Source of the DNA: Candidatus Levybacteria bacterium RIFCSPHIGHO2_01_FULL_37_33
GTDB taxonomy: Bacteria > Patescibacteriota > Microgenomatia > Levybacterales > UBA12049
Reading direction: 5' to 3'
Assembly (NCBI GenBank): GCA_001782085.1
Contig: MFNM01000022.1
Location: 1-43,564, forward strand
Length of the DNA: 43,564 bases
The notes under the pieces are model-generated. The model was not told the DNA's origin, ran no database searches, and saw nothing but the letters and a program-made list of their open reading frames with translations. Shown piece after piece: positions 1,735-37,955 of this stretch; positions within the stretch are counted from its first letter, which is position 1, and each line of letters begins with the position of its first letter. The position numbers and the translations under genes are program-made.

Positions 1735-2073
1735 ATGAAGAAAATACTGTTTATCACAGCTGTTGTAGCCTCAATTTTCATCATAAATAGCCTTGTCCGC
1801 TCGATTTACGATCTTTGGGGAAAACAAGACTTAATTACAAAGGCTCAAAAAGAATTGGATAGTGAAAAACGGGAAAATAAGGAGCTAAAATCAAAATTGT
1901 CTCAAGCTCAGAGTAGTAAGTTTGTAGAGGAGGAGGCTAGGAATAAACTTTTGCTAGTAAAACCGGGGGAGGAGCAAGTAATTATTTCCCAAGATCTCCT
2001 CTCGTCAAGTTCTGCTAAGAAAAAGCCGGATTCCCGCCCGAATTTTCGAAAATGGTGGGACTTATTCTTCTAG
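1735..2073 (+). CDS. Septum formation initiator (FtsB/DivIC-like)
   Basis: N-terminal TM helix, coiled coil, then EEEARNKLLLVKPGEEQVI, typical of DivIC/FtsB family proteins. Confidence 0.65.
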   Translation: MKKILFITAVVASIFIINSLVRSIYDLWGKQDLITKAQKELDSEKRENKELKSKLSQAQSSKFVEEEARNKLLLVKPGEEQVIISQDLLSSSSAKKKPDSRPNFRKWWDLFF

Positions 2074-2105: not shown

Positions 2106-2280
2106 TTGCGGGGGTTGGAAGAAATCAGGAATTTTTTCCTCTCCCAAACCACGCCTATATTTATACCAGATTTAAGTTAGAAGGTCTATTTTTGTAAGGA
2201 CTCTTATGCTCTCTACGCATGCAAGCTTTGGGGCTGGTTTATCAAAAATTGGCTCAATTTCTACAAAATTAATTTAATTT

Positions 2281-9191: not shown

Positions 9192-10955
9192 ATGGATATA
9201 CAAATTACTCTAAAATACATCGGATATGCCCGTAAATCTTCTGAAGACAATAAGGAGCGGCAGGCTGCTTCACTCCCTGAGCAGCTATACGCCCTTGAGG
9301 GTATTAAGGCAAAACATAATCTTAGTGTCATTGAAGTTCTACAAGAATCAAAATCCGCTCATAAGGCAGGCAGAGAAATATTCAATACTATGCTTGAGGA
9401 CATAGAGATGGGTAAGGCAAACGCAATCCTAACGTGGCACCCCAATAGACTATGTCGCAATCCACTTGACGCAGGGCGAATTATTTACTTGATGGATGAA
9501 GGGAAGCTTATTGAAATACGGACTCCTTCTCGGTCATACCGAGATAATTCTGATGATAAGTTTTTTCTTTCGCTTGAGTTTGGTATTTCAAAGAAAGACA
9601 GTGATGATAAAAGCATTGTGGTTGAGAGAGGGCTTGAGAAGAAGGCACGAGATGGCTGGAGACCAGGAGTCGCTCCGCAAGGCTATTTAAATGATAAAAC
9701 TACAGAAAGTGGTTTTAGGAAAATATTAACAGATCCAGAAAGATTTCCGTTCGCTGTAAAAATCTTTGAGTTATTCCATGCAGGCATACCAGCAGTAGAA
9801 ATTCACAGAATTGCAAAAGACGAATGGCACTTTACAACTCGTCAGAAGAAACGACTTGGAGGAAAGCCATTATCTTTAAGCATGATATACGCAATTCTTA
9901 CAAACCCCTTTTATTGCGGTAAGTTTGAATATCCTGTTGGAAGTGGGAAATGGTATGAAGGTCAGCATGAAAAAGCAGTGAGCGAAGAAATGTTTAATGA
10001 AATCCAAGTGAAACTTGGACGTAGAAGTCAATATAAATTAAAACACCACGAATATGCTTATACTGCCCTCATGCGTTGCAGTTTTTGTGATTCAGGTATA
10101 GTGGCGGAGCAGAAATGGCAGTGTATTTGTACAAACTGCAAGTTAAAATTCTCTCTTACTAAAAATAACCGGGACAAATGTACTGGATGTGGCACATTGA
10201 TAGAAGAGATGGTAAAACCAAAGCTACTTCATTATATTTATTATCGCTGCGGAAGAAAGAAAGACCCGGCTTGTAGAGAACGAGCAATAAGAATTGATGG
10301 ACTTGAGCAACAGATTGATGAGAAACTCTCTCAAGTTGAGATTTCCCCTCTCTTTATGGACTGGGCAATACGTCAAATTCACAAGATGAATGACAAGGGA
10401 CGAGACTTCAGGGAAGATGCTATAGAGGGTATTAAGCGAGCTCACGATGCGTGTAGAGCCAAACTTGATAACTTGCTTAAGCTCAAAATCTCGCCTGCAA
10501 ATAGTGATGGGAGTTTATTAAGTGATGAAAAATATAGAGAGGAAAAGACAACATTAGAGCAAGAATTAAAAAACATACAGCAACAATTAGGAAATGTAGA
10601 TGAGCGCATGATCCAAGCGAACAATGATACAGTAAAAGCCTTTAATTTTGTCACAAGAGCAAAGGAGAAATTTGCAGGCAACGACTTGAAAGTAAGACGG
10701 GATATTTTCATGGGACTTGGGTTGCACCTAAAGCTACAAAACAAAACAGTCCTGTTTGACAGTCCAAAGTACATTATGACGCTTAAAAAGATGAAAGAAG
10801 AAGCTCCGGTGATTGCGGAACGGGTCGCACCTGAGAAAGAGGTTGTTATGAAGCCTCAAATGGAACAAAAGTTCGCCTCAATTCCTGCTGTGTTGCGGGG
10901 CCAGGAGTTGCGCCTGGCCTATGAGATTATGCAACTGTTGTCTTCAATTACTTGA
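9192..10955 (+). CDS. Large serine recombinase (integrase-type)
   Basis: 587 aa. Resolvase-type catalytic N-terminus (GYARKSSEDNKERQAASLPEQ), recombinase domain, Cys-rich zinc-ribbon region (CSFCDSG...CTNC...CTGCG) and a long C-terminal coiled coil. Confidence 0.9.
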   Translation: MDIQITLKYIGYARKSSEDNKERQAASLPEQLYALEGIKAKHNLSVIEVLQESKSAHKAGREIFNTMLEDIEMGKANAILTWHPNRLCRNPLDAGRIIYLMDEGKLIEIRTPSRSYRDNSDDKFFLSLEFGISKKDSDDKSIVVERGLEKKARDGWRPGVAPQGYLNDKTTESGFRKILTDPERFPFAVKIFELFHAGIPAVEIHRIAKDEWHFTTRQKKRLGGKPLSLSMIYAILTNPFYCGKFEYPVGSGKWYEGQHEKAVSEEMFNEIQVKLGRRSQYKLKHHEYAYTALMRCSFCDSGIVAEQKWQCICTNCKLKFSLTKNNRDKCTGCGTLIEEMVKPKLLHYIYYRCGRKKDPACRERAIRIDGLEQQIDEKLSQVEISPLFMDWAIRQIHKMNDKGRDFREDAIEGIKRAHDACRAKLDNLLKLKISPANSDGSLLSDEKYREEKTTLEQELKNIQQQLGNVDERMIQANNDTVKAFNFVTRAKEKFAGNDLKVRRDIFMGLGLHLKLQNKTVLFDSPKYIMTLKKMKEEAPVIAERVAPEKEVVMKPQMEQKFASIPAVLRGQELRLAYEIMQLLSSIT

Positions 10956-11189
10956 AGTGTCGGACTATATCTTCATCCCTATCTTTTAAACAGAGAGCCC
11001 AGCGTATAGTCTCTACGGGTTTCCCGATATCTCGTCGAGATCTTCCCTCGGTATTGTCCTTTCGAAGCTTTACGCGCGAGAGGATTTCACCGATATAGCT
11101 GAGTTAACTTCCATAAATTTATGAAAGAGCCCATCTTTGAGCCTCATGTGCACTGTACACTACCCCGCGTGTAAGTTCATTATACCAAT

Positions 11190-11228: not shown

Positions 11229-11300
11229 GCCAACGTAGCTCAGGGGCAGAGCGGACGTTTCATAAGCGTCATGTCGCTGGTTCGAATCCAGCCGTTGGCA
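11229..11300 (+). tRNA. tRNA-Met (anticodon CAT; Met versus Ile2/initiator not resolved)
   Basis: Hand-folded cloverleaf: acceptor GCCAACG/CGTTGGC, D arm GCTC..GAGC, anticodon stem GACGT/GCGTC with loop TTCATAA, T arm GCTGG-TTCGAAT-CCAGC, discriminator A. CCA is not encoded. Confidence 0.9.
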
Positions 11301-11328
11301 CACTTCGACTCACTTCGTTCGCTCAGTG
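11301..11328 (-). repeat. REP-like 28-mer, inverted copy of 2078-2105
   Basis: CACTTCGACTCACTTCGTTCGCTCAGTG abuts the tRNA 3' end; 26/28 match to the reverse complement of 2078-2105. Confidence 0.8.
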
Positions 11329-13435: not shown

Positions 13436-14236
13436 ATGGTTAATAAGTCGATTGGTATTATTGATTCTGGAATAGGCGGGCTTTCGATTTGGAGAGAAAT
13501 TGTTAAAGAACTTCCAAAAGAATCCACTATTTACTTAGCCGATTCAAAGAATTGTCCATATGGCAGCAAATCCTCGGAAGAAATTTATCAACTTTCCAAA
13601 AAACTAGTTACATTTCTGGCTCAAAAGAAAGTTAAATTAATAGTTTTAGCTTGCAATACAATAACAGTTTCCTGCTTATCTAAATTAAGGATAGAGTTTC
13701 CAAAAATACCGATTATAGGAACAGTCCCCGTAATAAAAACAGCTTCAGAAATTACCAAAAATAATAAAATCGGAGTTTTATCAACTGTAAGAACAGCAAA
13801 AAGCAAATATCAGAAAAAATTAATACAAACCTTTGCCGGGGGAGCAAGGGTTTTGAATATTGGTACAGATAAGCTTGTCCCGATTATCGAAAACGAGGAG
13901 ACGAACATGATTAAGATCAATAAGATTTTGAACGAAGAACTGAAACCCTTCCTGGATTTTAAAATCGATACTTTGGCTCTTGGCTGTTCTCATTTCCCGT
14001 TTTTGAAAAAAAAGATGCAAAAAATTTTAGGCAAGAAGATTCTAATTTTGGATTCTTCAGCGGCAATTGCAAGGCAAATTGAAAGAGTTCTTAAAAACAA
14101 TAAAACACTTTCGGTATATAATAGTCGTAGTTATGTTTTACTGACAACCGGAGATCTTGAGAAGTTCAAAAAATTATCAAAAAAACTGTTGGGAAAAAAG
14201 TTCAAAAATGTTGCAATAAAAAGTATATCTTTATGA
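13436..14236 (+). CDS. murI: Glutamate racemase
   Basis: IGIIDSGIGGLSI, LACNT and GCSHFP motifs; overlaps the murD start by 4 nt. Confidence 0.9.
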   Translation: MVNKSIGIIDSGIGGLSIWREIVKELPKESTIYLADSKNCPYGSKSSEEIYQLSKKLVTFLAQKKVKLIVLACNTITVSCLSKLRIEFPKIPIIGTVPVIKTASEITKNNKIGVLSTVRTAKSKYQKKLIQTFAGGARVLNIGTDKLVPIIENEETNMIKINKILNEELKPFLDFKIDTLALGCSHFPFLKKKMQKILGKKILILDSSAAIARQIERVLKNNKTLSVYNSRSYVLLTTGDLEKFKKLSKKLLGKKFKNVAIKSISL

Positions 14237-15711
14237 TAAATAAATTTAAAAACAAGAAAATTGCGGTGATTGGGCTTGGAATAGAAGGTTTATCAAGTGT
14301 AAAATTTTTTAAAAAACAAGAAGCAAAAGTTATTGCTCTTGATCAAAAACCCTCCTTCGCTAAAGCTTCGAAGGGCAGGCAGGAAAAGATAATGCTCGGT
14401 AGAGATTATTTGAAGAATCTAGATCAGTACGATCTTGTTGTAAGAAGTCCGGGAGTTAAGCTAGGGCTTTTAGAAAAATATATATCAAGAAATAAGATAA
14501 CTTCGCAAACTAAGCTTTTTTTTGACCTTTGCCCGTGCCCGATTATTGGAGTAACCGGCACAAAAGGGAAGGGAACCACAGTATCTTTGATTTACGAAAT
14601 GCTGAAAAAGCAATCCTCCTCCGCTAAAGCTTCGGGGGACAAGGGCTTAGATGTATATTTAGGAGGAAATATCGGTAAGCCTCCTTTGGATTTTTTGGAC
14701 AAATTAAATCCTCAGTCCATTGTTGTTCTGGAATTGTCCAGTTTTCAGCTGCAGGATCTTACCAAAAGCCCTCATATTGCTGTCGTTCTTATGATAACAA
14801 GCGAGCACCTCGATTATCACAAAGATACACATGAATATGTTAATTCAAAAAGAAATATTCTTCGTTTTCAAACCAAAGAGGATCTTGTAATTATAAATAA
14901 AGATTATCCGGCAAGCAATGAATCACATATTCATACAGAAGGAAAAGTTTATGAGATAAGCCGAATTGGAAAAGTTAAAGAAGGGTGTTTTGTAAAAGAT
15001 GGAAAAATTATTGTCAGGGTTTCTCGGGGTCCTGTCAAAGGTTTCCTTCCCGTCGATGCTCGTTCTAGCCTCTCAAGTTCGGACGAACTCCGCGTCGCCG
15101 GAAACCCTTCCACCTTTGCCACCCCTCGATTTGGAACTGCGGAAATAATCAAAACTAAGGATATTCTTTTGCCAGGAAAACATAATCTAGAAAATGTTTG
15201 CGCGGCTGTTATGGCGGCGCTTCTTTCTGGTGTTTCAAAAGAAAACATTGTAGAGGTTCTTAAAACTTTTAAGGGACTTGAGCATAGGCTTGAGCTTGTT
15301 TCGGAAATAAATGGGGTAAGATTTTATGATGATTCTTTTTCTACAATTCCAGAGACGACTACCGCGGCAATTGAGGCGTTTTCGGATCCCGAGATTTTAA
15401 TACTTGGAGGGTCGAGTAAAAATAGTGATTTCAAAAAATTGGGAGAAGTAATTTCAAATTCAAGAAATATAAAAGCGATAATAGGAATAGGAATGGAATG
15501 GAAAAGAATAAAATCCCAAATCCAAAATCACAAATCACAAAAGATTATCGAGGGATTAAAAAATATGAAAGAGATTGTCCAGAAAGCTGCATCAATATCA
15601 GAGCTGGGGGATGTGGTTTTGCTTTCTCCAGCCTGCGCAAGCTTTGACATGTTCAAAAACTATAAAGACCGCGGAAACCAGTTTAAAGAAGAAGTGGGAA
15701 AACTTATTTAA
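14233..15711 (+). CDS. murD: UDP-N-acetylmuramoyl-L-alanine--D-glutamate ligase, carrying four in-frame repeat insertions
   Basis: N-terminal Rossmann IAVIGLGIEG, P-loop GVTGTKGKGTT, Mur ligase C-terminal domain. About 45 aa longer than typical MurD because of the insertions listed below. Confidence 0.9.
   Translation: MINKFKNKKIAVIGLGIEGLSSVKFFKKQEAKVIALDQKPSFAKASKGRQEKIMLGRDYLKNLDQYDLVVRSPGVKLGLLEKYISRNKITSQTKLFFDLCPCPIIGVTGTKGKGTTVSLIYEMLKKQSSSAKASGDKGLDVYLGGNIGKPPLDFLDKLNPQSIVVLELSSFQLQDLTKSPHIAVVLMITSEHLDYHKDTHEYVNSKRNILRFQTKEDLVIINKDYPASNESHIHTEGKVYEISRIGKVKEGCFVKDGKIIVRVSRGPVKGFLPVDARSSLSSSDELRVAGNPSTFATPRFGTAEIIKTKDILLPGKHNLENVCAAVMAALLSGVSKENIVEVLKTFKGLEHRLELVSEINGVRFYDDSFSTIPETTTAAIEAFSDPEILILGGSSKNSDFKKLGEVISNSRNIKAIIGIGMEWKRIKSQIQNHKSQKIIEGLKNMKEIVQKAASISELGDVVLLSPACASFDMFKNYKDRGNQFKEEVGKLI
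14350..14383 (+). repeat. Small palindromic element (core CGCTAAAGCTTCG), in frame in murD
   Basis: CCCTCCTTCGCTAAAGCTTCGAAGGGCAGGCAGG with stem CCTTCG/CGAAGG; translated as PSFAKASKGRQ. Confidence 0.8.
14614..14645 (+). repeat. Second copy of the CGCTAAAGCTTCG palindromic element, in frame in murD
   Basis: TCCTCCTCCGCTAAAGCTTCGGGGGACAAGGG; translated as SSSAKASGDKG. Confidence 0.8.
15040..15140 (+). repeat. GC-rich insertion of about 100 nt, in frame in murD
   Basis: Outer stem GGTTTCC (15040)/GGAAACC (15100) and inner palindrome AGTTCGGACGAACT (15075-15088). Visibly more GC-rich than the rest of the gene. Translated as GFLPVDARSSLSSSDELRVAGNPSTFATPRFGTAE. Confidence 0.7.
15511..15543 (+). 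repeat. Heptamer array AAATCCC/AAATCCA/AAATCAC x2, in frame in murD
   Basis: 7-nt periodic A-rich array translated as KSQIQNHKSQK. Confidence 0.7.
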
Positions 15712-23515: not shown

Positions 23516-23585
23516 ATTGTTCCATTGCTCTATTGCTGCATTGTTCTTTTTAAAACAATTTAACAATGAAACAATCTAACAATTT
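23516..23585 (+). repeat. Inverted array of 8-nt units (ATTGYTnn x4 / AACAATnn x4) spanning the glycosyltransferase start
   Basis: ATTGTT at 23516, ATTGCT at 23524 and 23532, ATTGTT at 23540, loop, then AACAAT at 23554, 23562, 23570 and 23578. ATG 23566 lies inside a unit. Confidence 0.8.
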
Positions 23586-24768
23586 GCGCATAGCCATTAT
23601 CCACGACTATATTAAAGAGTATGGAGGTGCTGAAAGAGTTTTGGAAGCGCTTCATGAGATTTGGCCAGATGCGCCGATTTATACTACAGTCTTTCTCCCA
23701 GATTTTTTAGGACCTCACAGAAATAGGTTCAAAAACTTCAAAATTAAGACTTCTTTTCTTCAATACCTGCCATTTAAGGAAAAACTTATCAGCCCTTTTA
23801 GAATTATTGCACCTTTGGTTTTTAAAACTTTTGATTTCTCAGAATTCGATGTGGTTATGGTTTCTGCAACAGGAGCATACAGTCCGAATTCGATTCGGAC
23901 AACAATTAACAATCGACAGTCAACAATTAACAAAAAAATAGTTCAAATTTGCTATTGTCATACTCCGCCCCGATATCTTTATGGGTATGCGACTGCTCGG
24001 GAATGGAAGAATAATTTAGTTTTTCGAGTTTTGGGGGAGCTTGCAAATCATTTCTTAAGGTTAGTTGATTTTAAAAGTTCACAAAATGTTGATTTTTTTA
24101 TTGCAAATTCAAAGAATGTTGCGGGAAGGATAAAAAAATTCTATAGAAAAGACTCAATAGTTATTTATCCACCGGTTGATACGCGGAATAAGGAATCAGG
24201 AATAAGGAATCAAAAAGTAAAAAAATCACATAATTCGTCATTCATAATTCATAATTCATATTTTTTAGCTGGCGGTAGGATAGCGAGGCCGAAAAATATT
24301 GAGTTGATAATTAAGACATTTGCTAAGCTAAAATTACCTCTTAAAGTTTTTGGAAAAGAATTCGGCGGACTTAGATTAAAAGAATCAGGAATTAGGAATC
24401 ACGAATCACGCATTGAATATCTGGGAGAAGTAAGCGATGAAGAAAAGTTAGAACTTATGAGAAATGCTAAGGCTTTTATTTTTGCCTCCGAAGATGAGGA
24501 TTTTGGGATTACTCCGGTTGAGGCAATGAGTGTTGGCACGCCGGTTATCGCATATCGGTCTGGGGGAGTTTTAGAGTCGGTTATTGAAGGGAAAACGGGT
24601 TTGTTTTTTGATGAATTGACAACCGAAAGCTTGTCAAAAGCAATCAAACAATTTAACAATTTAACAATTAATGCAAGCGATTGCATCGCCCAAGCCCAAA
24701 AGTTTTCAAAAGAAAGATTTAAAAAGGAAATAAAAGAGTTTGTAGAAAATAAATATAATAAAGATTAA
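23566..24768 (+). CDS. GT4-family glycosyltransferase with in-frame repeat insertions
   Basis: The EDFGITPVEAMSVGTPVIAYRSGGVLESV region and two Rossmann halves. Insertions at 23884-23927, 24185-24262, 24381-24411 and 24647-24668. Confidence 0.85.
   Translation: MKQSNNLRIAIIHDYIKEYGGAERVLEALHEIWPDAPIYTTVFLPDFLGPHRNRFKNFKIKTSFLQYLPFKEKLISPFRIIAPLVFKTFDFSEFDVVMVSATGAYSPNSIRTTINNRQSTINKKIVQICYCHTPPRYLYGYATAREWKNNLVFRVLGELANHFLRLVDFKSSQNVDFFIANSKNVAGRIKKFYRKDSIVIYPPVDTRNKESGIRNQKVKKSHNSSFIIHNSYFLAGGRIARPKNIELIIKTFAKLKLPLKVFGKEFGGLRLKESGIRNHESRIEYLGEVSDEEKLELMRNAKAFIFASEDEDFGITPVEAMSVGTPVIAYRSGGVLESVIEGKTGLFFDELTTESLSKAIKQFNNLTINASDCIAQAQKFSKERFKKEIKEFVENKYNKD
24185..24262 (+). repeat. Inverted heptamer array (GGAATMA x4 ... 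nnnATTC x4), in frame in the glycosyltransferase
   Basis: GGAATAAGGAATCAGGAATAAGGAATCA, a 16-nt A-rich loop, then CATAATTCGTCATTCATAATTCATAATTCATA. GAAT/ATTC cores are complementary. Translated as NKESGIRNQKVKKSHNSSFIIHNS. Confidence 0.75.
24381..24411 (+). repeat. Heptamer array AGAATCA GGAATTA GGAATCA CGAATCA, in frame in the glycosyltransferase
   Basis: Same word family as 24185 and 32699; translated as KESGIRNHESR. Confidence 0.75.
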
Positions 24769-29048: not shown

Positions 29049-30110
29049 ATGTTTCTCCGATCACTCAGTCTTCAAAATTTTAGAAACTACGAAAAGGCGG
29101 ATTTTAATTTTGCAAAAGATACAGCCATAATTGTTGGTCCGAATACTTCGGGTAAAACAAATTTTGCAGAAAGCATCTTTTATCTTGCAACGGGAAGAGG
29201 TTCTAAAGCCGAAAAAGACGCAGACTTGATACGTTTTTCGCAAAACTTAGCGAGGCTTTCGGGAGTACTTGAGGATAAAACAGAGCTTTCTGTTGTTGTC
29301 TGCCGGGAAGAATCAGATACGCGGGAAACAATTCGCAAGAAATATTTGGTAAACGGTGTTTTCAAAAGAAGAGTGGATTTTGCGGGAAATTTTGCTTGTG
29401 TAATTTTTTCTCCGGAGGATTTGGATATTATAATCGGCGGGCCGAACTTAAGAAGAAGATTATTGGACAATCTCTTAGAGCAGGTTGATAGGGACTATAG
29501 AAATGCGACAATTGTTTATACAAAAGCTCTTCGGCAAAGGAACGCGCTTTTAGACCGGGTAAGAGAATCAGGAGTAAGAAATGAAAAACTTTTCGAGTAT
29601 TGGGACGATCTTTTAATAAATAATGCGGCCGTTATTACAAAAAAAAGAGAAGAGTTTGTGCAGTTTATAAATGATTTTTCAAAAGAGATTTTTGATTTTA
29701 TTGTTTTTTACGACAAGAGTATTGTATCAAGTGCTCGGCTTTTGCAATATAGGCAGGCAGAAGTCGGAGCAGGGGTAACACTGGTTGGTCCACATCGAGA
29801 TGATGTGTCTTTTAGTATGTTTAATAACACGAGGCAAACAACACATGACATAAAATCTTTTGGATCAAGAGGACAACAGCGGTTAACTATTCTTCAGATG
29901 AAAATTATCGAGCTTTCTTTTATAGAAAAAATAATAGGGCAAAAACCTATCCTTATTTTGGATGATATATTCTCAGAGCTTGACTCAGGACACATAAAAT
30001 TGGTTTTGGATATGCTTTCGAATCAGCAATCAATTGTTACGACAACGCATAAAGAATTTATCGATTCAAAAATTCTTAAAAATGCCGACGTGATAGAATT
30101 GAGTAAATGA
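29049..30110 (+). CDS. recF: DNA replication and repair protein RecF
   Basis: Walker A GPNTSGKTN, SMC-like signature, Walker B LILDDIFSELD. Confidence 0.9.
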   Translation: MFLRSLSLQNFRNYEKADFNFAKDTAIIVGPNTSGKTNFAESIFYLATGRGSKAEKDADLIRFSQNLARLSGVLEDKTELSVVVCREESDTRETIRKKYLVNGVFKRRVDFAGNFACVIFSPEDLDIIIGGPNLRRRLLDNLLEQVDRDYRNATIVYTKALRQRNALLDRVRESGVRNEKLFEYWDDLLINNAAVITKKREEFVQFINDFSKEIFDFIVFYDKSIVSSARLLQYRQAEVGAGVTLVGPHRDDVSFSMFNNTRQTTHDIKSFGSRGQQRLTILQMKIIELSFIEKIIGQKPILILDDIFSELDSGHIKLVLDMLSNQQSIVTTTHKEFIDSKILKNADVIELSK

Positions 30111-30961
30111 AAACTTTCGATCCTGAAATACTTAAAAAACTGTATAAACCGCCGCCAGACTCTCATAAAGGACAGAATGGGAAGCTGCTTTTAATCGGAG
30201 GATCTAAGATTTTTCATGCGGCTTCGCTCTGGTCCCTAAAGGTTGCGTCAAGAATAGTTGATATGGTTTTTTATTCATCCATTCCCGAAAACAACCAGAT
30301 AGTTCAAAAGACAAAACAGGAATTTAGAGACGGAATAGTAGTTTCGCGAAACAAGGTCGAAGATTACATAAATGAAGCCGATTGCATTCTCATTGGTCCG
30401 GGATTGCCAAGAAAAGAGGGAGAGGAAGAGGGTGATGATGACACAAAATTCTTAACAGAAAAACTCCTTAAAAAGTACCCTAATAAAAAGTGGGTTATCG
30501 ATGGAGGCTCTCTTCAAATGATGGATTTGGAGATTATCCCGGGCAATTCAATCTTGACGCCCCACAAAAGAGAGTTCGAGATGCTGAAATTAAAAATTAA
30601 AAATGAAAAATTAAAAATGACAATTCAAAATTTAAAATTGGAAGAACAAATTGCAGAGCTTGCTAAAGAGTTTAATTGTGTAGTTTTGCTCAAGGGAGAA
30701 AAAGATTATGTTTGTTCGCCTCGGGAGTGCACAGAGGTTCCTGGGGGGGATGCGGGGATGACAAAAGGAGGAACGGGAGATGTTTTAGCAGGTTTGGTTG
30801 CGGCTTTGTATTGTAAAAACGATGCATTTATTTCGGCCTGCTCTGCATCATTTATAAACAAAAAGGCAGGGGAAAGCTTATTCAAAAAAGTCGGTTACTA
30901 CTTTAACTCCTCAGACCTCGTTGACGAAATTCCTAAGGTTATGAAAGAATTAATCTTCTGA
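30107..30961 (+). CDS. nnrD: ADP-dependent NAD(P)H-hydrate dehydratase (YjeF C-terminal type) with in-frame A-rich insertion
   Basis: HKGQNGKLLLIGGS and GTGDVLAGLVAAL motifs. Insertion at 30587-30642 is translated as KLKIKNEKLKMTIQNLKLE. Confidence 0.8.
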   Translation: MKTFDPEILKKLYKPPPDSHKGQNGKLLLIGGSKIFHAASLWSLKVASRIVDMVFYSSIPENNQIVQKTKQEFRDGIVVSRNKVEDYINEADCILIGPGLPRKEGEEEGDDDTKFLTEKLLKKYPNKKWVIDGGSLQMMDLEIIPGNSILTPHKREFEMLKLKIKNEKLKMTIQNLKLEEQIAELAKEFNCVVLLKGEKDYVCSPRECTEVPGGDAGMTKGGTGDVLAGLVAALYCKNDAFISACSASFINKKAGESLFKKVGYYFNSSDLVDEIPKVMKELIF

Positions 30962-31297: not shown

Positions 31298-32362
31298 ATG
31301 TATATACCAAAGTTCACTATTACAAACAAGATTCTTAAAAACATCGGAATAATTGAGGCATGCCGGGAAGTTATAGACAAAGCACCTCTTCTTCCTTACT
31401 ACGAAAAACAGTTCCGGGATGATGCGCTTATCAGAACTGTTCACTACGGAACTCATATTGAGGGAAATGAGTTAAATCTTTCCCAGGCAGAAAATGTAAT
31501 TATGGGAAAAGATGTTGTAGCCCGACAACGCGATATTCAGGAAGTTATAAACTACAGAAAGGTTATGCGGTATATTGAAGACATGGAAGAGTCAGAAAGA
31601 GTCAAAGAGTCAAAGAAAATTATAGACGAGGGTCTTATAAAACATCTCCATAGTCTTACAGTTAAAAAAATTTTATCAGCGGATGCTATCGGAAATTATC
31701 GAAAAAAACAGGTTGTTGTTAAAAATAGTTATACCGGAAAGGTTTCTTTTAAACCTCCTCTTTCTGTTGCGATCCCACCCCAGATAAAAGACCTAATTGC
31801 ATTTATAAACAGCACATCGGAGCAAGATATTCATCCGGTTTTGAAGAGCGGAGTTGTTCATTATGAACTCGTAAGAATCCACCCGTTTTTAGACGGAAAT
31901 GGACGAGTTGCAAGAGCACTTTCTACCCTTATTCTGTTTTTGGAAGGATATGATATAAGAAAATTCTTTTCTCTTGAGGAATATTTTGATAAAGAAGCAG
32001 TTAGGTATTATGACGCTTTGCAAAGTGTTGGAAAAAATGACGGCGATTTAACAAAATGGCTTGAATATTTTACGCAAGGTCTAGCAATTGAGCTTTCAAA
32101 AATAAAAGACAGGGTTGAGAAAATTTCAATCGACGCAAACCTTCGGGAAAAACTCGGAGGGAAACCAATAATGCTGACAGACAGACAGCTTAAGATAATG
32201 GAATATATTCAAAAGATAGGATATCTTCAGAACAAAGCATTTGGCGGGCTTTTTCCAATGGTTTCTGAGGACACGATTTTAAACGAGTTGAAAGCGCTGA
32301 TGAAGGCGGGTATAATCCGAAAGCAAGGAAAAACCAAAGCCGCAAAGTACATTATGAAGTAA
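31298..32362 (+). CDS. Fic-family protein (AMPylase-type) with C-terminal winged-helix domain
   Basis: Canonical Fic motif HPFLDGNGRVARAL. ATG lies 9 nt after TGcGATAAT. Confidence 0.85.
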   Translation: MYIPKFTITNKILKNIGIIEACREVIDKAPLLPYYEKQFRDDALIRTVHYGTHIEGNELNLSQAENVIMGKDVVARQRDIQEVINYRKVMRYIEDMEESERVKESKKIIDEGLIKHLHSLTVKKILSADAIGNYRKKQVVVKNSYTGKVSFKPPLSVAIPPQIKDLIAFINSTSEQDIHPVLKSGVVHYELVRIHPFLDGNGRVARALSTLILFLEGYDIRKFFSLEEYFDKEAVRYYDALQSVGKNDGDLTKWLEYFTQGLAIELSKIKDRVEKISIDANLREKLGGKPIMLTDRQLKIMEYIQKIGYLQNKAFGGLFPMVSEDTILNELKALMKAGIIRKQGKTKAAKYIMK

Positions 32363-32403: not shown

Positions 32404-34209
32404 ATGCACTTTAGTACTTTAAGTAAATATTACGAAAAATTAGAAGCAACTAGTAAACGCTTGGAATTGATAGATATTCTCTCAAAACTTTTTAAACAGG
32501 CAAAGAGCGATGAAATAGGTAAAATTTGTTATTTGATTCAGGGAAGAGTCGCGCCTTTTTTTGAACCAATAGAGATGGGGATGGCGGAAAATATTGTAGC
32601 GGTTGCGATAGCTCGGGCGTTCAATAAGGAAAAAGAACACGTAATTAAATTGTATCGAAAACTTGGGAATATGGGAATTGCAGCAGAAGAGCTATCGCGG
32701 AATCACGAATCGCGAATCAGGAATCAGGAATTAACAATAAGCCAGGTATTTAATGAACTTTTGAAAATTGCAAAATTCTCAGGTGAAGGGACTGTTGAAA
32801 AAAAAGTATCTGCGCTTTCAGGACTTCTTAAAAAATTAGATCCGATTTCTGCAAAGCATGTAGTAAACATTCCGCTTGGGACTTTAAGACTTGGTATTGG
32901 TGATGCTACAGTTTTGGATTCTCTATCCCTTTCAAAACATGGAGATAAAACACTTCGCCCTGTTCTTGAAGATGCATATAATAAAACAAGCGATCTGGGT
33001 TTTGTTGCAGAAACTTTTTTTAAGAAAGGAATCAACGGCATTAAAAATATAAAACTTACCTTAGGAAAGCCGATTCGACCCGCTCTTGCCGAGAGACTTC
33101 CTTCGGCAGATGAGGCAATAAAAAGGTTAGGAAATGAATTTGCGGCAGAGCCAAAGTTCGATGGATTTAGAGTTCAGATTCACTTAAGTAGAGCACACCT
33201 CCGAGGTGTGCCGCAGGCGCAACACCACCTCGGAGGTGGAGGAGAAGAGGTTGTTCAGCTTTTTTCAAGAAATCTAGAAAATACAACTCATGCCTTTCCC
33301 GACATCGTTTCAGGAGCGAAAAAAGAAATTAAGGCAAAATCTGCAATCTTAGAAGGGGAAGCAATTGCGTATAATCCTCAAACGCAGGAATTTTTGCCGT
33401 TTCAGGAAACTACAAAAAGAAGAAGAAAATATAAAATTGAGGAGATGGCAAAAAAACTTCCCTTAGTCTTATTTGCCTTTGACCTTTTGTATTTAAATGG
33501 GAAGGATATAACACAGAAACCTTATAGGCAAAGGAGAAAACTTTTGGAATCAATAGTTTCAAGAAATGGCGGAGTTATTAAAATTGCGCAGGAAAAGATT
33601 TTAAAAAGTACTAAAGAAATAACAGAATTTTTCAACGAAGCAATTTCTGAAGGACTTGAGGGACTCATGCTTAAAAAGCTGGATAGTCCCTATATCGCAG
33701 GGGGTAGGGGTTTTCATTGGATTAAATTTAAGAGAACTCAGGCAGGACAATTGACAGATTCGGTTGACTGCGTTTTACTTGGGGTCTATTCAGGAAAGGG
33801 GAAGAGAACAGAGTTTGGAGTAGGAGGGCTTTTGGTTGGCGTTTATGATGAGAAAAAAGACGAATTCGTTTCAATATCAAGGATCGGTACGGGCTTAACA
33901 GATGAGGAATTTAGAAAAGTAAATGAAATTTCAAAGCAATTAAGAGTTGTGCATAAGCCGGCTCGGGTCAATTCTGATATTACGCCGTCCTATTGGGTTG
34001 AGCCAAAGGTAGTTTTGGAAATTCAGGCAGACGAGATAACCCGCTCTCCAATCCACACGGCAGGTCGTGATAGAGAAGGCTTAGGATATGCTCTTCGTTT
34101 CCCAAGACTTGTAAAGTTTCGGGAAGCGGATAAAAGAGCCGAGGATGCGACAACAGTTGAAGAAATAAAAAAACTCTACAAACAACAATTCAACCACTAT
34201 AAGAAATAA
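32404..34209 (+). CDS. lig: ATP-dependent DNA ligase (Lig1/archaeal type) with two in-frame repeat insertions
   Basis: Motif I EPKFDGFR, then LEGEAIAY, FAFDLLYLNG, EGLMLK and WIKFK. Insertions at 32699-32732 and 33193-33239. Confidence 0.9.
   Translation: MHFSTLSKYYEKLEATSKRLELIDILSKLFKQAKSDEIGKICYLIQGRVAPFFEPIEMGMAENIVAVAIARAFNKEKEHVIKLYRKLGNMGIAAEELSRNHESRIRNQELTISQVFNELLKIAKFSGEGTVEKKVSALSGLLKKLDPISAKHVVNIPLGTLRLGIGDATVLDSLSLSKHGDKTLRPVLEDAYNKTSDLGFVAETFFKKGINGIKNIKLTLGKPIRPALAERLPSADEAIKRLGNEFAAEPKFDGFRVQIHLSRAHLRGVPQAQHHLGGGGEEVVQLFSRNLENTTHAFPDIVSGAKKEIKAKSAILEGEAIAYNPQTQEFLPFQETTKRRRKYKIEEMAKKLPLVLFAFDLLYLNGKDITQKPYRQRRKLLESIVSRNGGVIKIAQEKILKSTKEITEFFNEAISEGLEGLMLKKLDSPYIAGGRGFHWIKFKRTQAGQLTDSVDCVLLGVYSGKGKRTEFGVGGLLVGVYDEKKDEFVSISRIGTGLTDEEFRKVNEISKQLRVVHKPARVNSDITPSYWVEPKVVLEIQADEITRSPIHTAGRDREGLGYALRFPRLVKFREADKRAEDATTVEEIKKLYKQQFNHYKK
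32699..32732 (+). repeat. Heptamer array GGAATCA CGAATCG CGAATCA GGAATCA GGAATT, in frame in the ligase
   Basis: Same word family as the glycosyltransferase arrays; translated as RNHESRIRNQE. Confidence 0.75.
33193..33239 (+). repeat. Twin GC-rich hairpins in frame just after ligase motif I
   Basis: GCACACCTC-C-GAGGTGTGC (33193-33211) and CCACCTC-G-GAGGTGG (33225-33239); translated as AHLRGVPQAQHHLGGG. Confidence 0.8.
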
Positions 34210-35251: not shown

Positions 35252-36676
35252 GTGAGTTTTGTAGCAGATCTACATTTACATAGTAAGTATTCGCGTGCGG
35301 TTTCGCAGAATATGATTTTGCCTGAGATGGCAAGGTGGGCAAGCTTAAAAGGACTTGATGTTATTTCCACATCGGATTTTACTCATCCTCTTTGGTTTAG
35401 AGAATTAAAGAGTCAACTTGAGGAAGCATCCGATGGTCTTTACAGACTTAAATCAGACAACAGTCAGACTCTATTTCTTCTATCAACAGAAATTTCAAGC
35501 ATTTATAAACAGGGAGAGAAACTTAGAAGAATTCATAATCTGGTTTTTGTGCCAAATCTTGAAACAGTTGAAAAGATAAACAAAGAATTTACAAAAAGAG
35601 CATTCAATCTCCTAGCAGACGGCAGACCTATTATCGGACTCTCATCAAAAGATCTTTTAGAGCTTCTTCTTTCTATCGATAAAAATATTTTGCTTATTCC
35701 CTGTCATGTTTGGACGCCTCATTTTGGCTTATATGGAAGTGCTTCGGGATTTGATTCTATAGAAGAATGCTTTGGTAACTTAAGAGATTATGTATATGCA
35801 GTAGAAACCGGTTTATCAAGCGATCCGGAGATGAACTGGCAAATTGAAGAGTTAAGGACTCGTTCAATCCTCTCATTTTCCGATGCCCATTCGGGAGCAA
35901 AGATGGGAAGAGAGGCGACCGTATTTGAGCTTCAAGAACCAAGCTATGAGAACATAAGAAAATCAATAACTCGGTTATCGGTTTTCAGTGGTCAGTTATC
36001 GGGTACCAGTTCATCGGTTGCTCGGTCTACAGATAAACTGAAAACAGAACAACAAAAAACCGAAAACAGAAAACCGAAAACTGATAACAGAATTCAATAC
36101 ACCATTGAATTTTATCCTGAGGAGGGGAAGTATCATTTTTCCGGTCATCGAAATTGCAAAGTAGTTCGGGGTCCAGAGGAAACTAGGAAAGACGGAAATA
36201 TTTGCCCGGTATGCAAAAGGCGGCTTACAGAAGGAGTTCTTTACAGACTTCAGCAGTTATCCAATAAAAATTTATTAGGAAAAGTAGAGGCTAAAATAAG
36301 TCAGTCGGGGATAAAATGGTACACCGATACAATGAAGAATCATCCGCCGTTTATAAAACTTGTTCCTTTAAACGAAATAATCTCAGAAGCTTTTTCTTCG
36401 ACTGTTTCCAGCCAAAAAGTTAAAGATACCTTTGATAACTTATGCAAGAATTTAGGATCGGAAATAGAAGTTCTTCTTAAAACCCCGCTTTCCCAAATAG
36501 AAAAAATAGGAGGGGCTAAATTATCGCAAGGGCTTGATAAAGTTAGAAAGGGCAATATTGTCATAGACCCAGGATATGATGGAGAATACGGGAAAGTAAA
36601 AATATGGAACGGCAACGACACAATTACTCAATCAGTAGAAGAAAAACAAGAGTCTCAATTGGGTCTTCAATTTTAA
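35252..36676 (+). CDS. Endonuclease Q-like PHP-domain nuclease (TIGR00375-type) with a 120-nt in-frame hairpin insertion
   Basis: ADLHLHSKYSRAVS PHP motif, zinc finger CPVCKRRLTEGVLYR, C-terminal DPGYDGEYGKV. Confidence 0.75.
   Translation: MSFVADLHLHSKYSRAVSQNMILPEMARWASLKGLDVISTSDFTHPLWFRELKSQLEEASDGLYRLKSDNSQTLFLLSTEISSIYKQGEKLRRIHNLVFVPNLETVEKINKEFTKRAFNLLADGRPIIGLSSKDLLELLLSIDKNILLIPCHVWTPHFGLYGSASGFDSIEECFGNLRDYVYAVETGLSSDPEMNWQIEELRTRSILSFSDAHSGAKMGREATVFELQEPSYENIRKSITRLSVFSGQLSGTSSSVARSTDKLKTEQQKTENRKPKTDNRIQYTIEFYPEEGKYHFSGHRNCKVVRGPEETRKDGNICPVCKRRLTEGVLYRLQQLSNKNLLGKVEAKISQSGIKWYTDTMKNHPPFIKLVPLNEIISEAFSSTVSSQKVKDTFDNLCKNLGSEIEVLLKTPLSQIEKIGGAKLSQGLDKVRKGNIVIDPGYDGEYGKVKIWNGNDTITQSVEEKQESQLGLQF
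35969..36090 (+). repeat. Long imperfect hairpin built from 7-nt units, in frame in the EndoQ-like gene
   Basis: T/G-rich arm CGGTTAT CGGTTTT CAGTGGT CAGTTAT... and A/C-rich arm ...AAACCGA AAACAGA AAACCGA AAACTGA TAACAG. The terminal 15-mers are complementary at 13/15 positions. Translated as RLSVFSGQLSGTSSSVARSTDKLKTEQQKTENRKPKTDNR. Confidence 0.8.
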
Positions 36677-37331: not shown

Positions 37332-37955
37332 ATGAAGTTAATCGTAGGGTTAGGCAACCCGGACATAAAATATGGGCATACACGCCATAATCTGGGTTTT
37401 ATGGTATTGGACAGATTTCTAAAAGACTTTTCGCAGGTTCAAAAAACTATTTGGGAAGATAGCAAAAAATTTAAATGTGATATTTCTCAGATTGAATGGC
37501 AGCCCAAACAAGGAGTACTTAGAAGAATAATTTTAGTAAAACCTAAAACATACATGAACAATTCAGGTCTAAGCGTTAAGCTTGTATCATCATTTTACAA
37601 AATTAATCCATCTGACATTTGGATAATTCATGATGAAATCGATTTGCCTTTAGGCAGTATGAAAATAAGATTTGGCGGAGGAACTGCGGGGCACAAGGGA
37701 GTGATGTCCATAATGAGCTCTTTGGGTACGGAAAAATTTTGGAGATTTAGGTTAGGCATCGGACACCAAAAAGGAATTCAAAATTTAAAATTCAAAATTA
37801 AAAATTCCAAAAGCGTCGAAGAATTTGTCTTGAGAGGATTCTCAAGCGGAGAGGCTGGAAAAGCGCGTGATGTTATAAAACGGGGATCAAAAGCTATTGC
37901 GGAGGCGCTTGAAAATGGTTTAGAAAAAGCAATGAACAGGTTCAATACCAAATAG
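37332..37955 (+). CDS. pth: Peptidyl-tRNA hydrolase with in-frame A-rich insertion
   Basis: LIVGLGNPDIKYGHTRHNLGF. The insertion at 37773-37811 (GIQNLKFKIKNSK) falls in the loop after RLGIGH. Confidence 0.9.
   Translation: MKLIVGLGNPDIKYGHTRHNLGFMVLDRFLKDFSQVQKTIWEDSKKFKCDISQIEWQPKQGVLRRIILVKPKTYMNNSGLSVKLVSSFYKINPSDIWIIHDEIDLPLGSMKIRFGGGTAGHKGVMSIMSSLGTEKFWRFRLGIGHQKGIQNLKFKIKNSKSVEEFVLRGFSSGEAGKARDVIKRGSKAIAEALENGLEKAMNRFNTK

Follow-up and report, generated by a model that had tools for sequence, protein, structure and literature searches.

Heptanucleotide repeat arrays in housekeeping genes of a Levybacteria contig: probable simple-sequence repeats of DNA-level origin, tolerated within the reading frame

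Repeat units with a length not divisible by three are generally assumed to be kept out of coding sequence. The stretch of DNA analysed here (the window, 43,564 nt of contig MFNM01000022.1 from Candidatus Levybacteria bacterium RIFCSPHIGHO2_01_FULL_37_33) raises the question of how one 7-nt word came to be repeated in the genes of two unrelated proteins, a glycosyltransferase and a DNA ligase. The initial annotation had placed three GGAATMA/CGAATCR heptamer arrays at 24185-24212, 24381-24411 and 32699-32732, and all three are present. These GGAATCA-type arrays (n=3) consist of 4-4.7 head-to-tail 7-nt units (TRF and our own period scan) and are translated into RNKESGIRNQ, KESGIRNHESRI and RNHESRIRNQ. 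With at most one mismatch, the pattern GAATCASGAATC matched the window 11 times against 0.40 expected, a count reached in 0 of 100 shuffles; all matches fall within the three arrays except one at 30020.

The arrays of the window are hosted by MurD, a GT4 glycosyltransferase (GT; ORF 23566..24768), NnrD, an ATP-dependent DNA ligase (ORF 32404..34209), Pth and an EndoQ-like protein. The features are as follows.

2123..2132, + strand: single copy of the 10-mer AATCAGGAAT, within the stem-loop that follows ORF 1735..2073; taken to be a chance match outside the array system
15484..15541, + strand: GGAAT pentamer run, then AAATCCC/AAATCAC heptamer array, MurD C-terminal domain (ORF 14233..15711)
23900..23933, + strand: CAACAAT array, TTINNRQSTINKK, GT site A; the empty state of orthologs is 30 nt shorter
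24185..24212, + strand: GGAATAA GGAATCA GGAATAA GGAATCA, four units forming a perfect 14-nt unit twice, GT site B, inter-domain linker; encodes RNKESGIRNQ
24213..24228, + strand: A-rich spacer separating the two site-B arrays
24229..24262, + strand: CATAATT CGTCATT CATAATT CATAATT CAT, ~4.6 units, degenerate inverted partner of the 24185 array; encodes HNSSFIIHNS
24381..24411, + strand: GAATCAG GAATTAG GAATCAC GAATCAC G, GT site C; its orthologs in L011 and L092 are perfect (GAATCAC)4.6 arrays
30587..30640, + strand: AAATTAA array and AATTCAA/AATTTAA run in NnrD (ORF 30107..30961); one T>G removes an in-frame TAA
32699..32732, + strand: GAATCAC GAATCGC GAATCAG GAATCAG GAAT, variable loop of the ATP-dependent DNA ligase (DNA-binding domain, aa 98-109)
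35971..36092, + strand: inverted pair within ORF 35252..36676, (TCGGTTA/TCAGTTA)n followed by (AACCGAA/AACTGAA)n; the only composite forming a real hairpin
37775..37811, + strand: AATTCAA/AATTTAA array, loop at aa 148-160 of peptidyl-tRNA hydrolase (Pth; ORF 37332..37955)

The copy of AATCAGGAAT at 2123-2132 had been counted as a related fragment (~2119-2135). It exists, but is probably a coincidence, with 0.25 copies expected per window, and it lies across the loop and the 3' arm of a stem-loop that is A/U-rich and ordinary.

The arrays are part of a marked excess of period 7. At least eight period-7 arrays were found in the window, against 0-2 at other periods and 0 in shuffles. Across 80 related Microgenomates loci (1.32 Mb) there were 132 period-7 arrays, compared with 3 at period 3, 2 at period 6, 20 at period 8 and 13 at period 9; no period that is not a multiple exceeded 20. 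A 50-kb E. coli control contained no arrays. The search for further copies proposed in the initial annotation thus succeeded both in this genome and across the lineage. For GAATCAS and for AAATTCG alike, arrays were found in more than 120 genome stretches, spread over many phyla. Long stop-free frames contain 111 of 140 arrays (79%), against 84.5% for random positions. This indicates that the arrays lie within genes at roughly the density of random placement and are not excluded from coding DNA; predominantly intergenic placement, a trait of the heptamer-repeat class, does not apply to them, and in this respect they are a variant. Among the 29 non-ORF arrays, 18 have stops on both strands.

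Several features point to an origin in the DNA and not in the protein. The units are diverse, perfect arrays read in three frames give no protein-level repeat, and imperfect arrays contain higher-order repeats of 14 and 21 nt that are perfect, which slippage by several units would be expected to produce. Since a 7-nt unit is read in three successive frames, three units specifying seven residues, the same unit yields the same peptide in any two genes, as had been proposed and as the translations bear out. The ESGIRNQ/ESRIRNQ peptide and its sharing between glycosyltransferase and ligase are best read as by-products. Protein-level selection for a heptad-like repeat was considered and rejected: an array spans only ~1.5 peptide periods, and perfect 7-nt identity extends over all three frames.

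The reading frame nevertheless leaves its mark. Arrays in genes have a stop-free orientation, point changes at would-be in-frame stops and a net loop length that is a multiple of 3. In the ATAATTC and AAATTAA arrays, units are changed exactly where TAA would be in frame; in the array at 24229-24262, with codon phasing read from the sequence, the would-be TAA units are altered (TCG TCA; TCA TAT). The expectation that arrays come in whole multiples of three units did not hold, as they typically comprise 4.3-4.9 units (30-34 nt). Among perfect in-ORF runs, 32 of 50 have a length that is a multiple of 3 (p = 9e-6) and none exceeds 34 nt. Frame is maintained through net loop length, not unit count.

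Where alignments could place them, the arrays occupy variable, insertion-tolerant loops and not conserved blocks. Those of the ligase and Pth align to variable loops of solved homologs. When 27 sequences are aligned, those of the glycosyltransferase coincide with three of the five indel hot spots; these sites measure 78, 93 and 66 nt in the window, whereas the empty state has 48, 45 and 60 nt. An AF2 model of the glycosyltransferase, of mediocre quality with a mean pLDDT of 64.9, shows coil with low-confidence stretches for the segments at sites B and C, which weakly supports a loop location. Empty sites, which the initial annotation had suggested looking for, were found among orthologs; the same loops are short in some, as in NnrD orthologs without the array, which are 11-12 aa shorter, and filled by other heptamer units or other palindromic inserts in others. 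GT site C carries homogeneous (GAATCAC), (AAATCGC) or (AAAGTCA) arrays in different species, while the ligase loop carries (GAATCAS), (AAATCAC), (CGAAAAA) or a (GACTACR) hairpin. Pure insertion of 21 nt or its multiples was rejected, as differences from empty orthologs were +6 (GT site C), +9 (the ligase loop), +12, +30, +33-36 and +48 nt. Arrays often take the place of sequence that was already there.

Taken together, the arrays are probably heptanucleotide simple-sequence repeats that arise in the DNA and that genes tolerate in frame as extra loop residues. A DNA process would create and re-homogenise them regardless of coding. The most likely candidate for this process is copying by strand slippage or template switching in steps of 7 nt, possibly with a contribution from copying between arrays. 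Genes would then retain only arrays that are stop-free, frame-neutral in net length and placed in tolerant loops. We infer that the arrays have no dedicated function, and that they are stable inside species and turned over between species. Against this reading stand the absence of any observed step of the generating process and the absence of copy-number polymorphism in 10 contigs of the same species.

The arrays could alternatively be mobile mini-cassettes resembling Rickettsia palindromic elements, either blocks of ~30-34 nt or composites of ~72-125 nt (array, spacer, inverted array), that are copied by transposition, template switching or gene conversion and persist where they are in frame. 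One composite type, (GGAATMA)n followed by an A-rich spacer and (AYAATTC)n, does recur in several genomes, at GT site B in the window, L092, L015 and L023 and at GT site C in L091 and, at the protein level, in P0081. The site-B composite has 0 mismatches over ~85 nt between the window and L092, in genes that share 76% identity, and another array has 1 mismatch in 54 nt relative to L213. Both arrays are far more conserved than their flanks, which is unexpected for neutral DNA. An exact (AAATTCG)4.7 33-mer, starting and ending in the same phase each time, is found at four sites in three genomes (a 30-nt AAATTCG run in another phase occupies a fifth site), and an identical imperfect AAATTAA 33-mer is common to two different genes, MurD of L013 and NnrD of the window. 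Identical units are shared by 4.6% of comparisons within genomes against 1.1% between genomes, and units at most one base apart by 15.5% against 9.1% (permutation p ~0.0015). The excess of run lengths that are multiples of 3 would be expected under whole-block insertion. Peptides of classical palindromic elements occupy the same loops in other orthologs, and other phyla have inverted arrays with full complementarity (L137, L154). The arrays also lie in frame in unrelated ORFs without disrupting them.

However, most arrays within a genome differ in unit, and hence form no single element family, and the A-rich, stop-free bias of the units raises the odds of coincidental identity. Target-site duplications or conserved termini were not evident by eye at the composites, an unsystematic look identified no candidate transposase, and the frequent replacement of sequence, as in the small net gains at GT site C and the ligase loop, also speaks against such cassettes. 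We regard such cassettes as unlikely. Conservation above flanks, within-genome unit sharing and the shared 33-mer count against the preferred reading and hint at copying between sites or at constraint.

The preferred reading of DNA-level repeats tolerated in loops must also accommodate array size. The arrays of this lineage have a mode of 30-33 nt. A mode of 30-34 nt is seen across phyla for AAATTCG and for other heptamer units of the same loci; it is weaker, with a long tail, for GAATCAS. Frame quantisation, in which a seed gains exactly 3 units and only +21 nt stays in frame, was considered as the cause of the size cap and fitted the in-ORF data. It was rejected as the main cause: AAATTCG arrays in high-GC genomes of other phyla also measure 21-34 nt, and low-GC arrays outside ORFs share this range, against a coding-frame cause. 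A size mode of ~32 nt across phyla points to a mechanistic constraint. Simple slippage leaves this sharp mode unaccounted for, as it does growth within essential genes without frameshifted intermediates of +1 or +2 units. Blocks of ~32 nt might instead be laid down by a dedicated, widely conserved and unit-indifferent process, such as a ruler-like enzyme activity or inter-array copy-and-paste. This would fit the cross-phyla size mode, the multiple-of-3 lengths, the identical arrays at non-homologous sites and the conservation above flanks, although we judge it quite improbable. If true, the blocks would rank as the smallest kind of mobile DNA compatible with coding, and the surface loops of essential enzymes in CPR bacteria would be under continual rewriting.

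A selected function was also weighed, whether as adaptive linkers or surface patches rich in K/N/Q/S/E/I, or as RNA or DNA hairpins, pause sites or protein-binding sites (OB-fold/cold-shock-type). Such a role could explain why some arrays are better conserved than their flanks, and the constancy of the ~32-nt mode across phyla could reflect a binding partner; the cold-shock protein CspB binds heptamer repeats with one protein per unit, according to PMC4679880. The composite at 35968-36095 folds into a strong hairpin, at -17.7 kcal/mol as DNA (z -3.1) and -35.4 kcal/mol as RNA (z -4.0). The hairpin proposed at 24185 fared less well. Its inverted array at 24229-24262 exists, is complementary to the first array in the GAAT/ATTC cores only, and does form the 4-bp helices; however, the segment 24183-24264 reaches -2.6 kcal/mol as DNA (z -0.35), no better than shuffles, and a marginal -7.6 kcal/mol as RNA (z -2.3). 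A stable DNA hairpin at 24185-24262 was rejected on this basis. The complementarity is imperfect because the exact complement, TGATTCC, would put a TGA in frame. The three GGAATCA arrays gave no fold in DNA and RNA folding, single arrays have no inverted partner, and Rfam gave no hit over the arrays. For AAATTCG arrays of other phyla, a role in the 5'-UTR or as translation enhancer was tried and set aside: a Shine-Dalgarno motif, start codon and ORF lay at most 120 nt downstream in 14 of 109 cases against 6 of 97 on the opposite strand as antisense control, no clear enrichment. Unit, length and peptide of the loops are also completely different from one species to another, many orthologs have an empty loop, and the brevity of an array in peptide periods leaves no protein repeat to select. 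A selected function is therefore very unlikely.

The initial annotation had further anticipated that unit counts would vary among strains. Ten contigs from 9 samples (99.4-100% identity) show no indel in any of the arrays, and all ligase-bearing contigs (7/7) carry the same 32-nt array; array length and sequence vary between species, not within them. In JGI metagenomes, a gapped flank pattern for strain-level variants gave no match, while the same pattern matches 7 of the loci compared here. Assembly artefact was rejected, as identical arrays occur in independent ENA, JGI and NCBI assemblies. The absence of variation among near-identical contigs makes phase variation unlikely: contingency loci, slippage-prone tracts that toggle genes by frameshift, would suit a unit of 7, where a one-unit change shifts the frame, and heptamer repeats drive HMW adhesin phase variation in Haemophilus (PMC8262952), but aligned length variants in protein clusters of at least 90% identity do not differ at arrays (sole exception, the mosaic ligase variant P0126 with a different insert), the genes affected encode housekeeping enzymes in single copy (MurD, Pth, ligase) and are not surface or restriction-modification genes, and the arrays have fewer than 5 units and are often imperfect, so that this reading is largely refuted and extremely improbable. 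There is no sign of arrays acting as genetic switches. The initial observation of shared heptamer arrays is thus confirmed, and its interpretation is supported in part.

The bacterial excess of 7-nt repeats has been on record since 2007 and, to our knowledge, has never been explained. A lineage of ultra-small bacteria with such repeats in essential enzymes offers a natural experiment, in which the reading frame and stop codons record the arrays that are survivable, and orthologous loops across hundreds of metagenome genomes record array births, homogenisation and replacement. The ~32-nt mode suggests a mechanistic constraint open to biochemical test. For annotators, recurring K/N/Q/S-rich peptides (ESGIRNQ, KSQIPNKSQ, KFKIQNS) in unrelated CPR proteins should not be read as homology or domains.

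Heptamer repeats are over-represented in bacteria (Mrazek, Guo and Shah 2007, as cited in PMC4692102 and PMC4679880), and inverted pairs of heptamer arrays have also been reported (PMC4692102; PMC4679880). With prokaryotic heptanucleotide long simple-sequence repeats, the arrays share tandem 7-nt units, the period excess, a size of about four units and occasional inverted pairs. The majority of Xanthomonas GGGAATC arrays have four units (PMC4692102); this unit (rotated, GAATCGG) has a GAATC core and is one base from the GAATCAG/GAATCAC found here, and our own scan recovered Xanthomonadales arrays (L154, L130). However, the Xanthomonas GGGAATC and Nostoc GGGGAYT repeats are described as intergenic, G-rich (G-quadruplex candidates) and up to 26 units long (PMC4692102), whereas 79% of the arrays here lie in ORFs of housekeeping genes, are translated and A-rich, and have fewer than 5 perfect units. 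Related heptamer systems include cyanobacterial STRR heptamers and the TAACTGA repeats of Beggiatoaceae, cyanobacteria and Bacteroidetes (PMC4679880). The TCAGTTA/TCGGTTA units of the 35971-36092 composite are the reverse complement of TAACTGA/TAACCGA, and one orientation alone of TAACTGA repeats is translatable (PMC4679880). TAACTGA repeats are concentrated upstream of start codons, where a regulatory role was proposed (PMC4679880), in contrast to the arrays here, which are inside ORFs.

Two systems of repeats within genes offer further parallels. Rickettsia palindromic elements (PMC10969869) are likewise in-frame repetitive DNA at fold-compatible positions in unrelated housekeeping genes, in a bacterium with a reduced genome; their translation adds peptide segments to the host proteins, and some instances are palindromic. 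They differ in forming ~150-bp families, each with a conserved peptide, whereas the present arrays are ~32 nt long with diverse 7-nt units and no evidence of transposition. Borg-element repeats (PMC9879509) are also nucleotide-level tandem repeats in ORFs that evolve fast between relatives and encode low-complexity protein segments, there creating intrinsically disordered regions (PMC9879509). The arrays here differ in their 7-nt unit, which is not divisible by 3, so that three frames are read in turn. The intragenic units of Borgs are reportedly multiples of 3 nt, leaving their copy number free to change.

All three GGAATCA/CGAATCA arrays that the initial annotation had described in a glycosyltransferase and a DNA ligase are present in the window:

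24185-24212, array 1, glycosyltransferase site B: GGAATAA GGAATCA GGAATAA GGAATCA
24381-24411, array 2, glycosyltransferase site C: GAATCAG GAATTAG GAATCAC GAATCAC G
32699-32732, array 3, DNA ligase: GAATCAC GAATCGC GAATCAG GAATCAG GAAT

The host ORFs encode a GT4 glycosyltransferase (GT; 23566..24768) and an ATP-dependent DNA ligase (32404..34209). The word GAATCASGAATC has 11 matches in the window at ≤1 mismatch versus 0.40 expected, a count attained in no shuffle. The encoded peptides are RNKESGIRNQ, KESGIRNHESRI and RNHESRIRNQ; as had been proposed, their recurrence in unrelated proteins is the mechanical result of a common 7-nt unit. The inverted partner array at 24229-24262 exists as well, and the GAAT/ATTC cores are its sole match to the complement of array 1. 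A 10-mer at 2123-2132, initially taken for a related fragment, is judged a chance occurrence (one extra copy, 0.25 expected per window) and lies within an ordinary A/U-rich stem-loop. Overall, the observation is confirmed and its first interpretation is borne out in part.

The heptamer pattern is much wider than these three arrays. A period scan of the window returned 8 period-7 arrays, plus 5 and 2 at the multiples 14 and 21; all remaining periods from 2 to 21 gave 0 to 2 arrays each, and shuffles approximately none. Further arrays are:

23900, CAACAAT array, GT site A (same gene as arrays 1 and 2)
15511, AAATCMC array, MurD
30587, AAATTAA array, NnrD
37775, AATTCAA array, peptidyl-tRNA hydrolase (Pth)
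35971-36092, inverted pair, (TCGGTTA)n then (AACCGAA)n, PHP/zinc-finger ORF

By its homologs, the window belongs to Candidatus Levybacteria (Patescibacteria/CPR). Across 80 loci around the orthologous GT in Microgenomates genomes (1.32 Mb), 132 arrays have period 7, compared with 3 of period 3, 2 of period 6, 20 of period 8, 13 of period 9 and 6 of period 12; a 50 kb E. coli control contained zero arrays. Units in these loci are varied, mainly A-rich with a TC step (AAATTCA, AAATCAC, GAATCAC, AAATTCG, AAAGTCA), with a GC-rich minority such as CCATACG and GCGGTCA. The data show a period-7 phenomenon at the level of DNA. Period 8, the runner-up in related loci, is also represented in the window by tandem arrays at 23516-23543, 23554-23585, 24647-24669 and 31596-31616 (ATTGCTCC; AACAATTT; AAAGAGTC); the AACAATTT array occurs around the GT start and again within the gene (perfect, x2.9).

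The array hosts are conserved housekeeping enzymes. Long stop-free frames hold 111 of 140 arrays, compared with 84.5% of random positions, so coding DNA is not avoided, and array frequency in this lineage is shown to be equal in coding and non-coding DNA. Arrays are concentrated in the GT gene, at 0.49 per kb versus 0.073 per kb in its flanks. In alignment A1, 27 GT orthologs that share 65-79% identity with the window's protein vary in length at five sites only (columns 123-160, 245-305, 345-385, 443-460 and 483-490), three of which hold the window's arrays. A check for empty sites bore out the expectation: the commonest states at sites A, B and C are empty, at 48, 45 and 60 nt, whereas the window's sites measure 78, 93 and 66 nt. 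Other orthologs carry other heptamer arrays there, or peptides of palindromic-repeat-element type. Such peptides (CHPERSEGS..., IARSEERATRQS...IASPLRGLAMT, ESRHSGKP...DSGQARMT, GNPSAGSGRQKP, LPAGRQGS) occupy the same five loops; the GT gene can thus house in-frame repeat DNA of several classes. A mediocre AlphaFold model shows sites B and C as coil, with some stretches at pLDDT <50. In comparison with solved structures, a variable loop within the ligase's DNA-binding domain holds its array, and the Pth array maps to a loop whose length is not constant among homologs. Where alignments allowed placement, arrays are shown to lie in indel-tolerant loops.

Other elements were also seen in the window. 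Relative to Sulfolobus ligase 2hiv, the ligase has an 18-residue insert, LSRAHLRGVPQAQHHLGGGGEE, in its adenylation domain (aa ~261-282). The MurD ORF (14233..15711) contains an in-frame GC-rich segment, VSRGPVKGFLPVDARSSLSSSDELRVAGNPSTFATPRFGTAE, at 14985-15141. Inverted repeats lie inside it at 15033-15046 and 15100-15121, and the segment resembles an in-frame insertion of a palindromic element. In contig L002 this segment takes another, AT-rich form, 77 nt shorter, and MurD is two ORFs. A full-length match to the group I intron model (Rfam RF00028, 62.9 bits) lies at 10941-11149 (-), adjoining a tRNA-Met at 11229-11301 (+); joining the flanks of the match rebuilt no tRNA.

The hairpin proposed for array 1 and its partner (24183-24264) does not hold as DNA (-2.6 kcal/mol, z -0.35, no better than shuffles); the RNA value is -7.6 kcal/mol (z -2.3). 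Complementarity at 24185-24262 is poor because TGATTCC, the exact complement of GGAATCA, would bring an in-frame TGA once per three units. The right arm of such composites (array, spacer, inverted array) reads ATAATTC in the window and ACAATTC in the relative L091, and the altered units in the window's arm are exactly those where TAA would otherwise be in frame (TCG TCA; TCA TAT). The same stop logic explains the lone T>G in the NnrD AAATTAA array (AAT TAA to AAT GAA). The arrays are shown to obey a stop-codon and frame filter. A perfectly complementary version is found in other phyla, as (GAATCAM)4, a GC-rich loop and (TGATTCK)4 in L137, with a similar architecture in a Luteimonas stretch (L154). 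Window-like composites recur at GT site B in L092, L015 and L023, and at site C in L091 and in the homolog P0081 (protein level).

The inverted pair at 35968-36095 forms a true hairpin, the strongest built from heptamer arrays (DNA z -3.1; RNA -35.4 kcal/mol, z -4.0). Its ORF (35252..36676, 474 aa) has no Pfam match and is similar to PHP plus zinc-finger nucleases of the EndoQ type (HLHSKYS..., CPVCKRRL). The hairpin units are the reverse complement of a TAACTGA-type unit known from Beggiatoaceae. In GC-rich Deltaproteobacteria/Acidobacteriota, inverted pairs (CGAATTT)4...(AAATTCG)4 flank GC-rich segments of 30-300 nt, and MAG HYP3_US_05_8 has many arrays of this type:

L238, 1696-2038
L236, 1602-1808
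L259, 4740-4913
L223, 902-976
L285, 7395-7477

The unit-number variation among strains that slippage had led the initial annotation to anticipate was not seen: ten same-species contigs from nine samples, 99.4-100% identical to the window, have zero indels in any array. The ligase array keeps the same 32-nt form in 7/7 contigs extending to it, and among 90%-identity protein clusters a mosaic ligase (P0126) is the only member seen to differ in length where an array lies. Between species, the same loops hold different arrays. At GT site C, perfect (GAATCAC)4.6 in L011 and L092, (AAATCGC)4.6 in L024 and (AAAGTCA)4.7 in L028 all adjoin the same conserved I-E-F codons, with a degenerate GAATCAS form in the window and a decayed form in L012. 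In the ligase loop, the window has (GAATCAS)4.7, L011 has (AAATCAC)4.6 of equal length, L012 has (CGAAAAA)2.9 and L213/P0126 has a hairpin of (GACTACR)3 plus an inverted copy; other orthologs have a loop that is 3-5 residues shorter. In L213 (~77% nucleotide identity), the arrays at GT sites A and B and in the EndoQ-like loop all differ from the window's. These differences indicate that loops are refilled repeatedly and that arrays are homogenised or replaced on a between-species time scale. The arrays are shown to be static inside this species and fluid from one species to another.

P0126 (L213 10001-11824) is 100% identical to the window's ligase over residues 170-360 and ~75-85% elsewhere, a mosaic that indicates recent recombination between Levybacteria species. 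An in-frame hairpin composite, (GGACTAC)3 followed by an inverted copy (GTAGTCG / GTAGAC), recurs in two relatives, each time in another gene: at GT site A (L092 ~340-400) and in the ligase loop (L213 ~10290-10360).

The reading we favour, with some reserve, is that the arrays arise by slipped-strand or template-switch copying and would be passengers without dedicated function. The main rival, considerably less probable, is that pre-formed blocks or composites are copied and pasted. In favour of this rival, non-homologous sites bear identical 33-mers; two species with 76% identity between their genes have site-B composites that agree over ~85 nt with 0 mismatches; and the NnrD array has 1 mismatch in 54 nt with flanks 15-30% divergent, some arrays being conserved above their flanks. 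Units are also common to arrays within genomes (permutation p about 0.0015), and 32/50 run lengths are multiples of three (p 9e-6). Selection for a function of the protein, RNA or DNA may apply to single arrays; as a general explanation it is unsupported and improbable. Phase variation of arrays so invariant among strains is very unlikely.

The repeat is widespread. Exact (GAATCAS)3 and (AAATTCG)3 each match at least 120 genome stretches, and the matches listed include Acidobacteriota, Verrucomicrobiota, Planctomycetota, Bacteroidota, Deltaproteobacteria, cyanobacteria, Xanthomonadales and several CPR groups. Array size has a sharp mode at 30-34 nt (~32 nt) in every phylum examined: 90/130 AAATTCG arrays among the matches listed fall in this range, and for a further 298 heptamer arrays of other units at these loci the peak is at 31-32 nt. 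Long size tails occur in some lineages only, and the longest perfect run in Microgenomates ORFs is ≤34 nt. Frame quantisation (a seed plus exactly three further units, since only +21 nt stays in frame) was tested as the cause of this size cap and rejected, as was a 5'-UTR role.

Full-text literature searches found no paper discussing simple-sequence repeats in Patescibacteria. The present findings agree with an earlier report of over-represented heptanucleotide repeats among prokaryotes, with polymerase slippage over a 7-nt contact as the proposed cause (PMC4692102; PMC4679880). The GGGAATC repeats of Xanthomonas are mainly of four units, with some inverted pairs (PMC4692102). They resemble the present arrays in their size of about four units and in their inverted pairs, and GGGAATC rotated (GAATCGG) is one base off the units found here. 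The arrays belong to a repeat class that is known but poorly understood, and their setting, intragenic and translated, is unusual.
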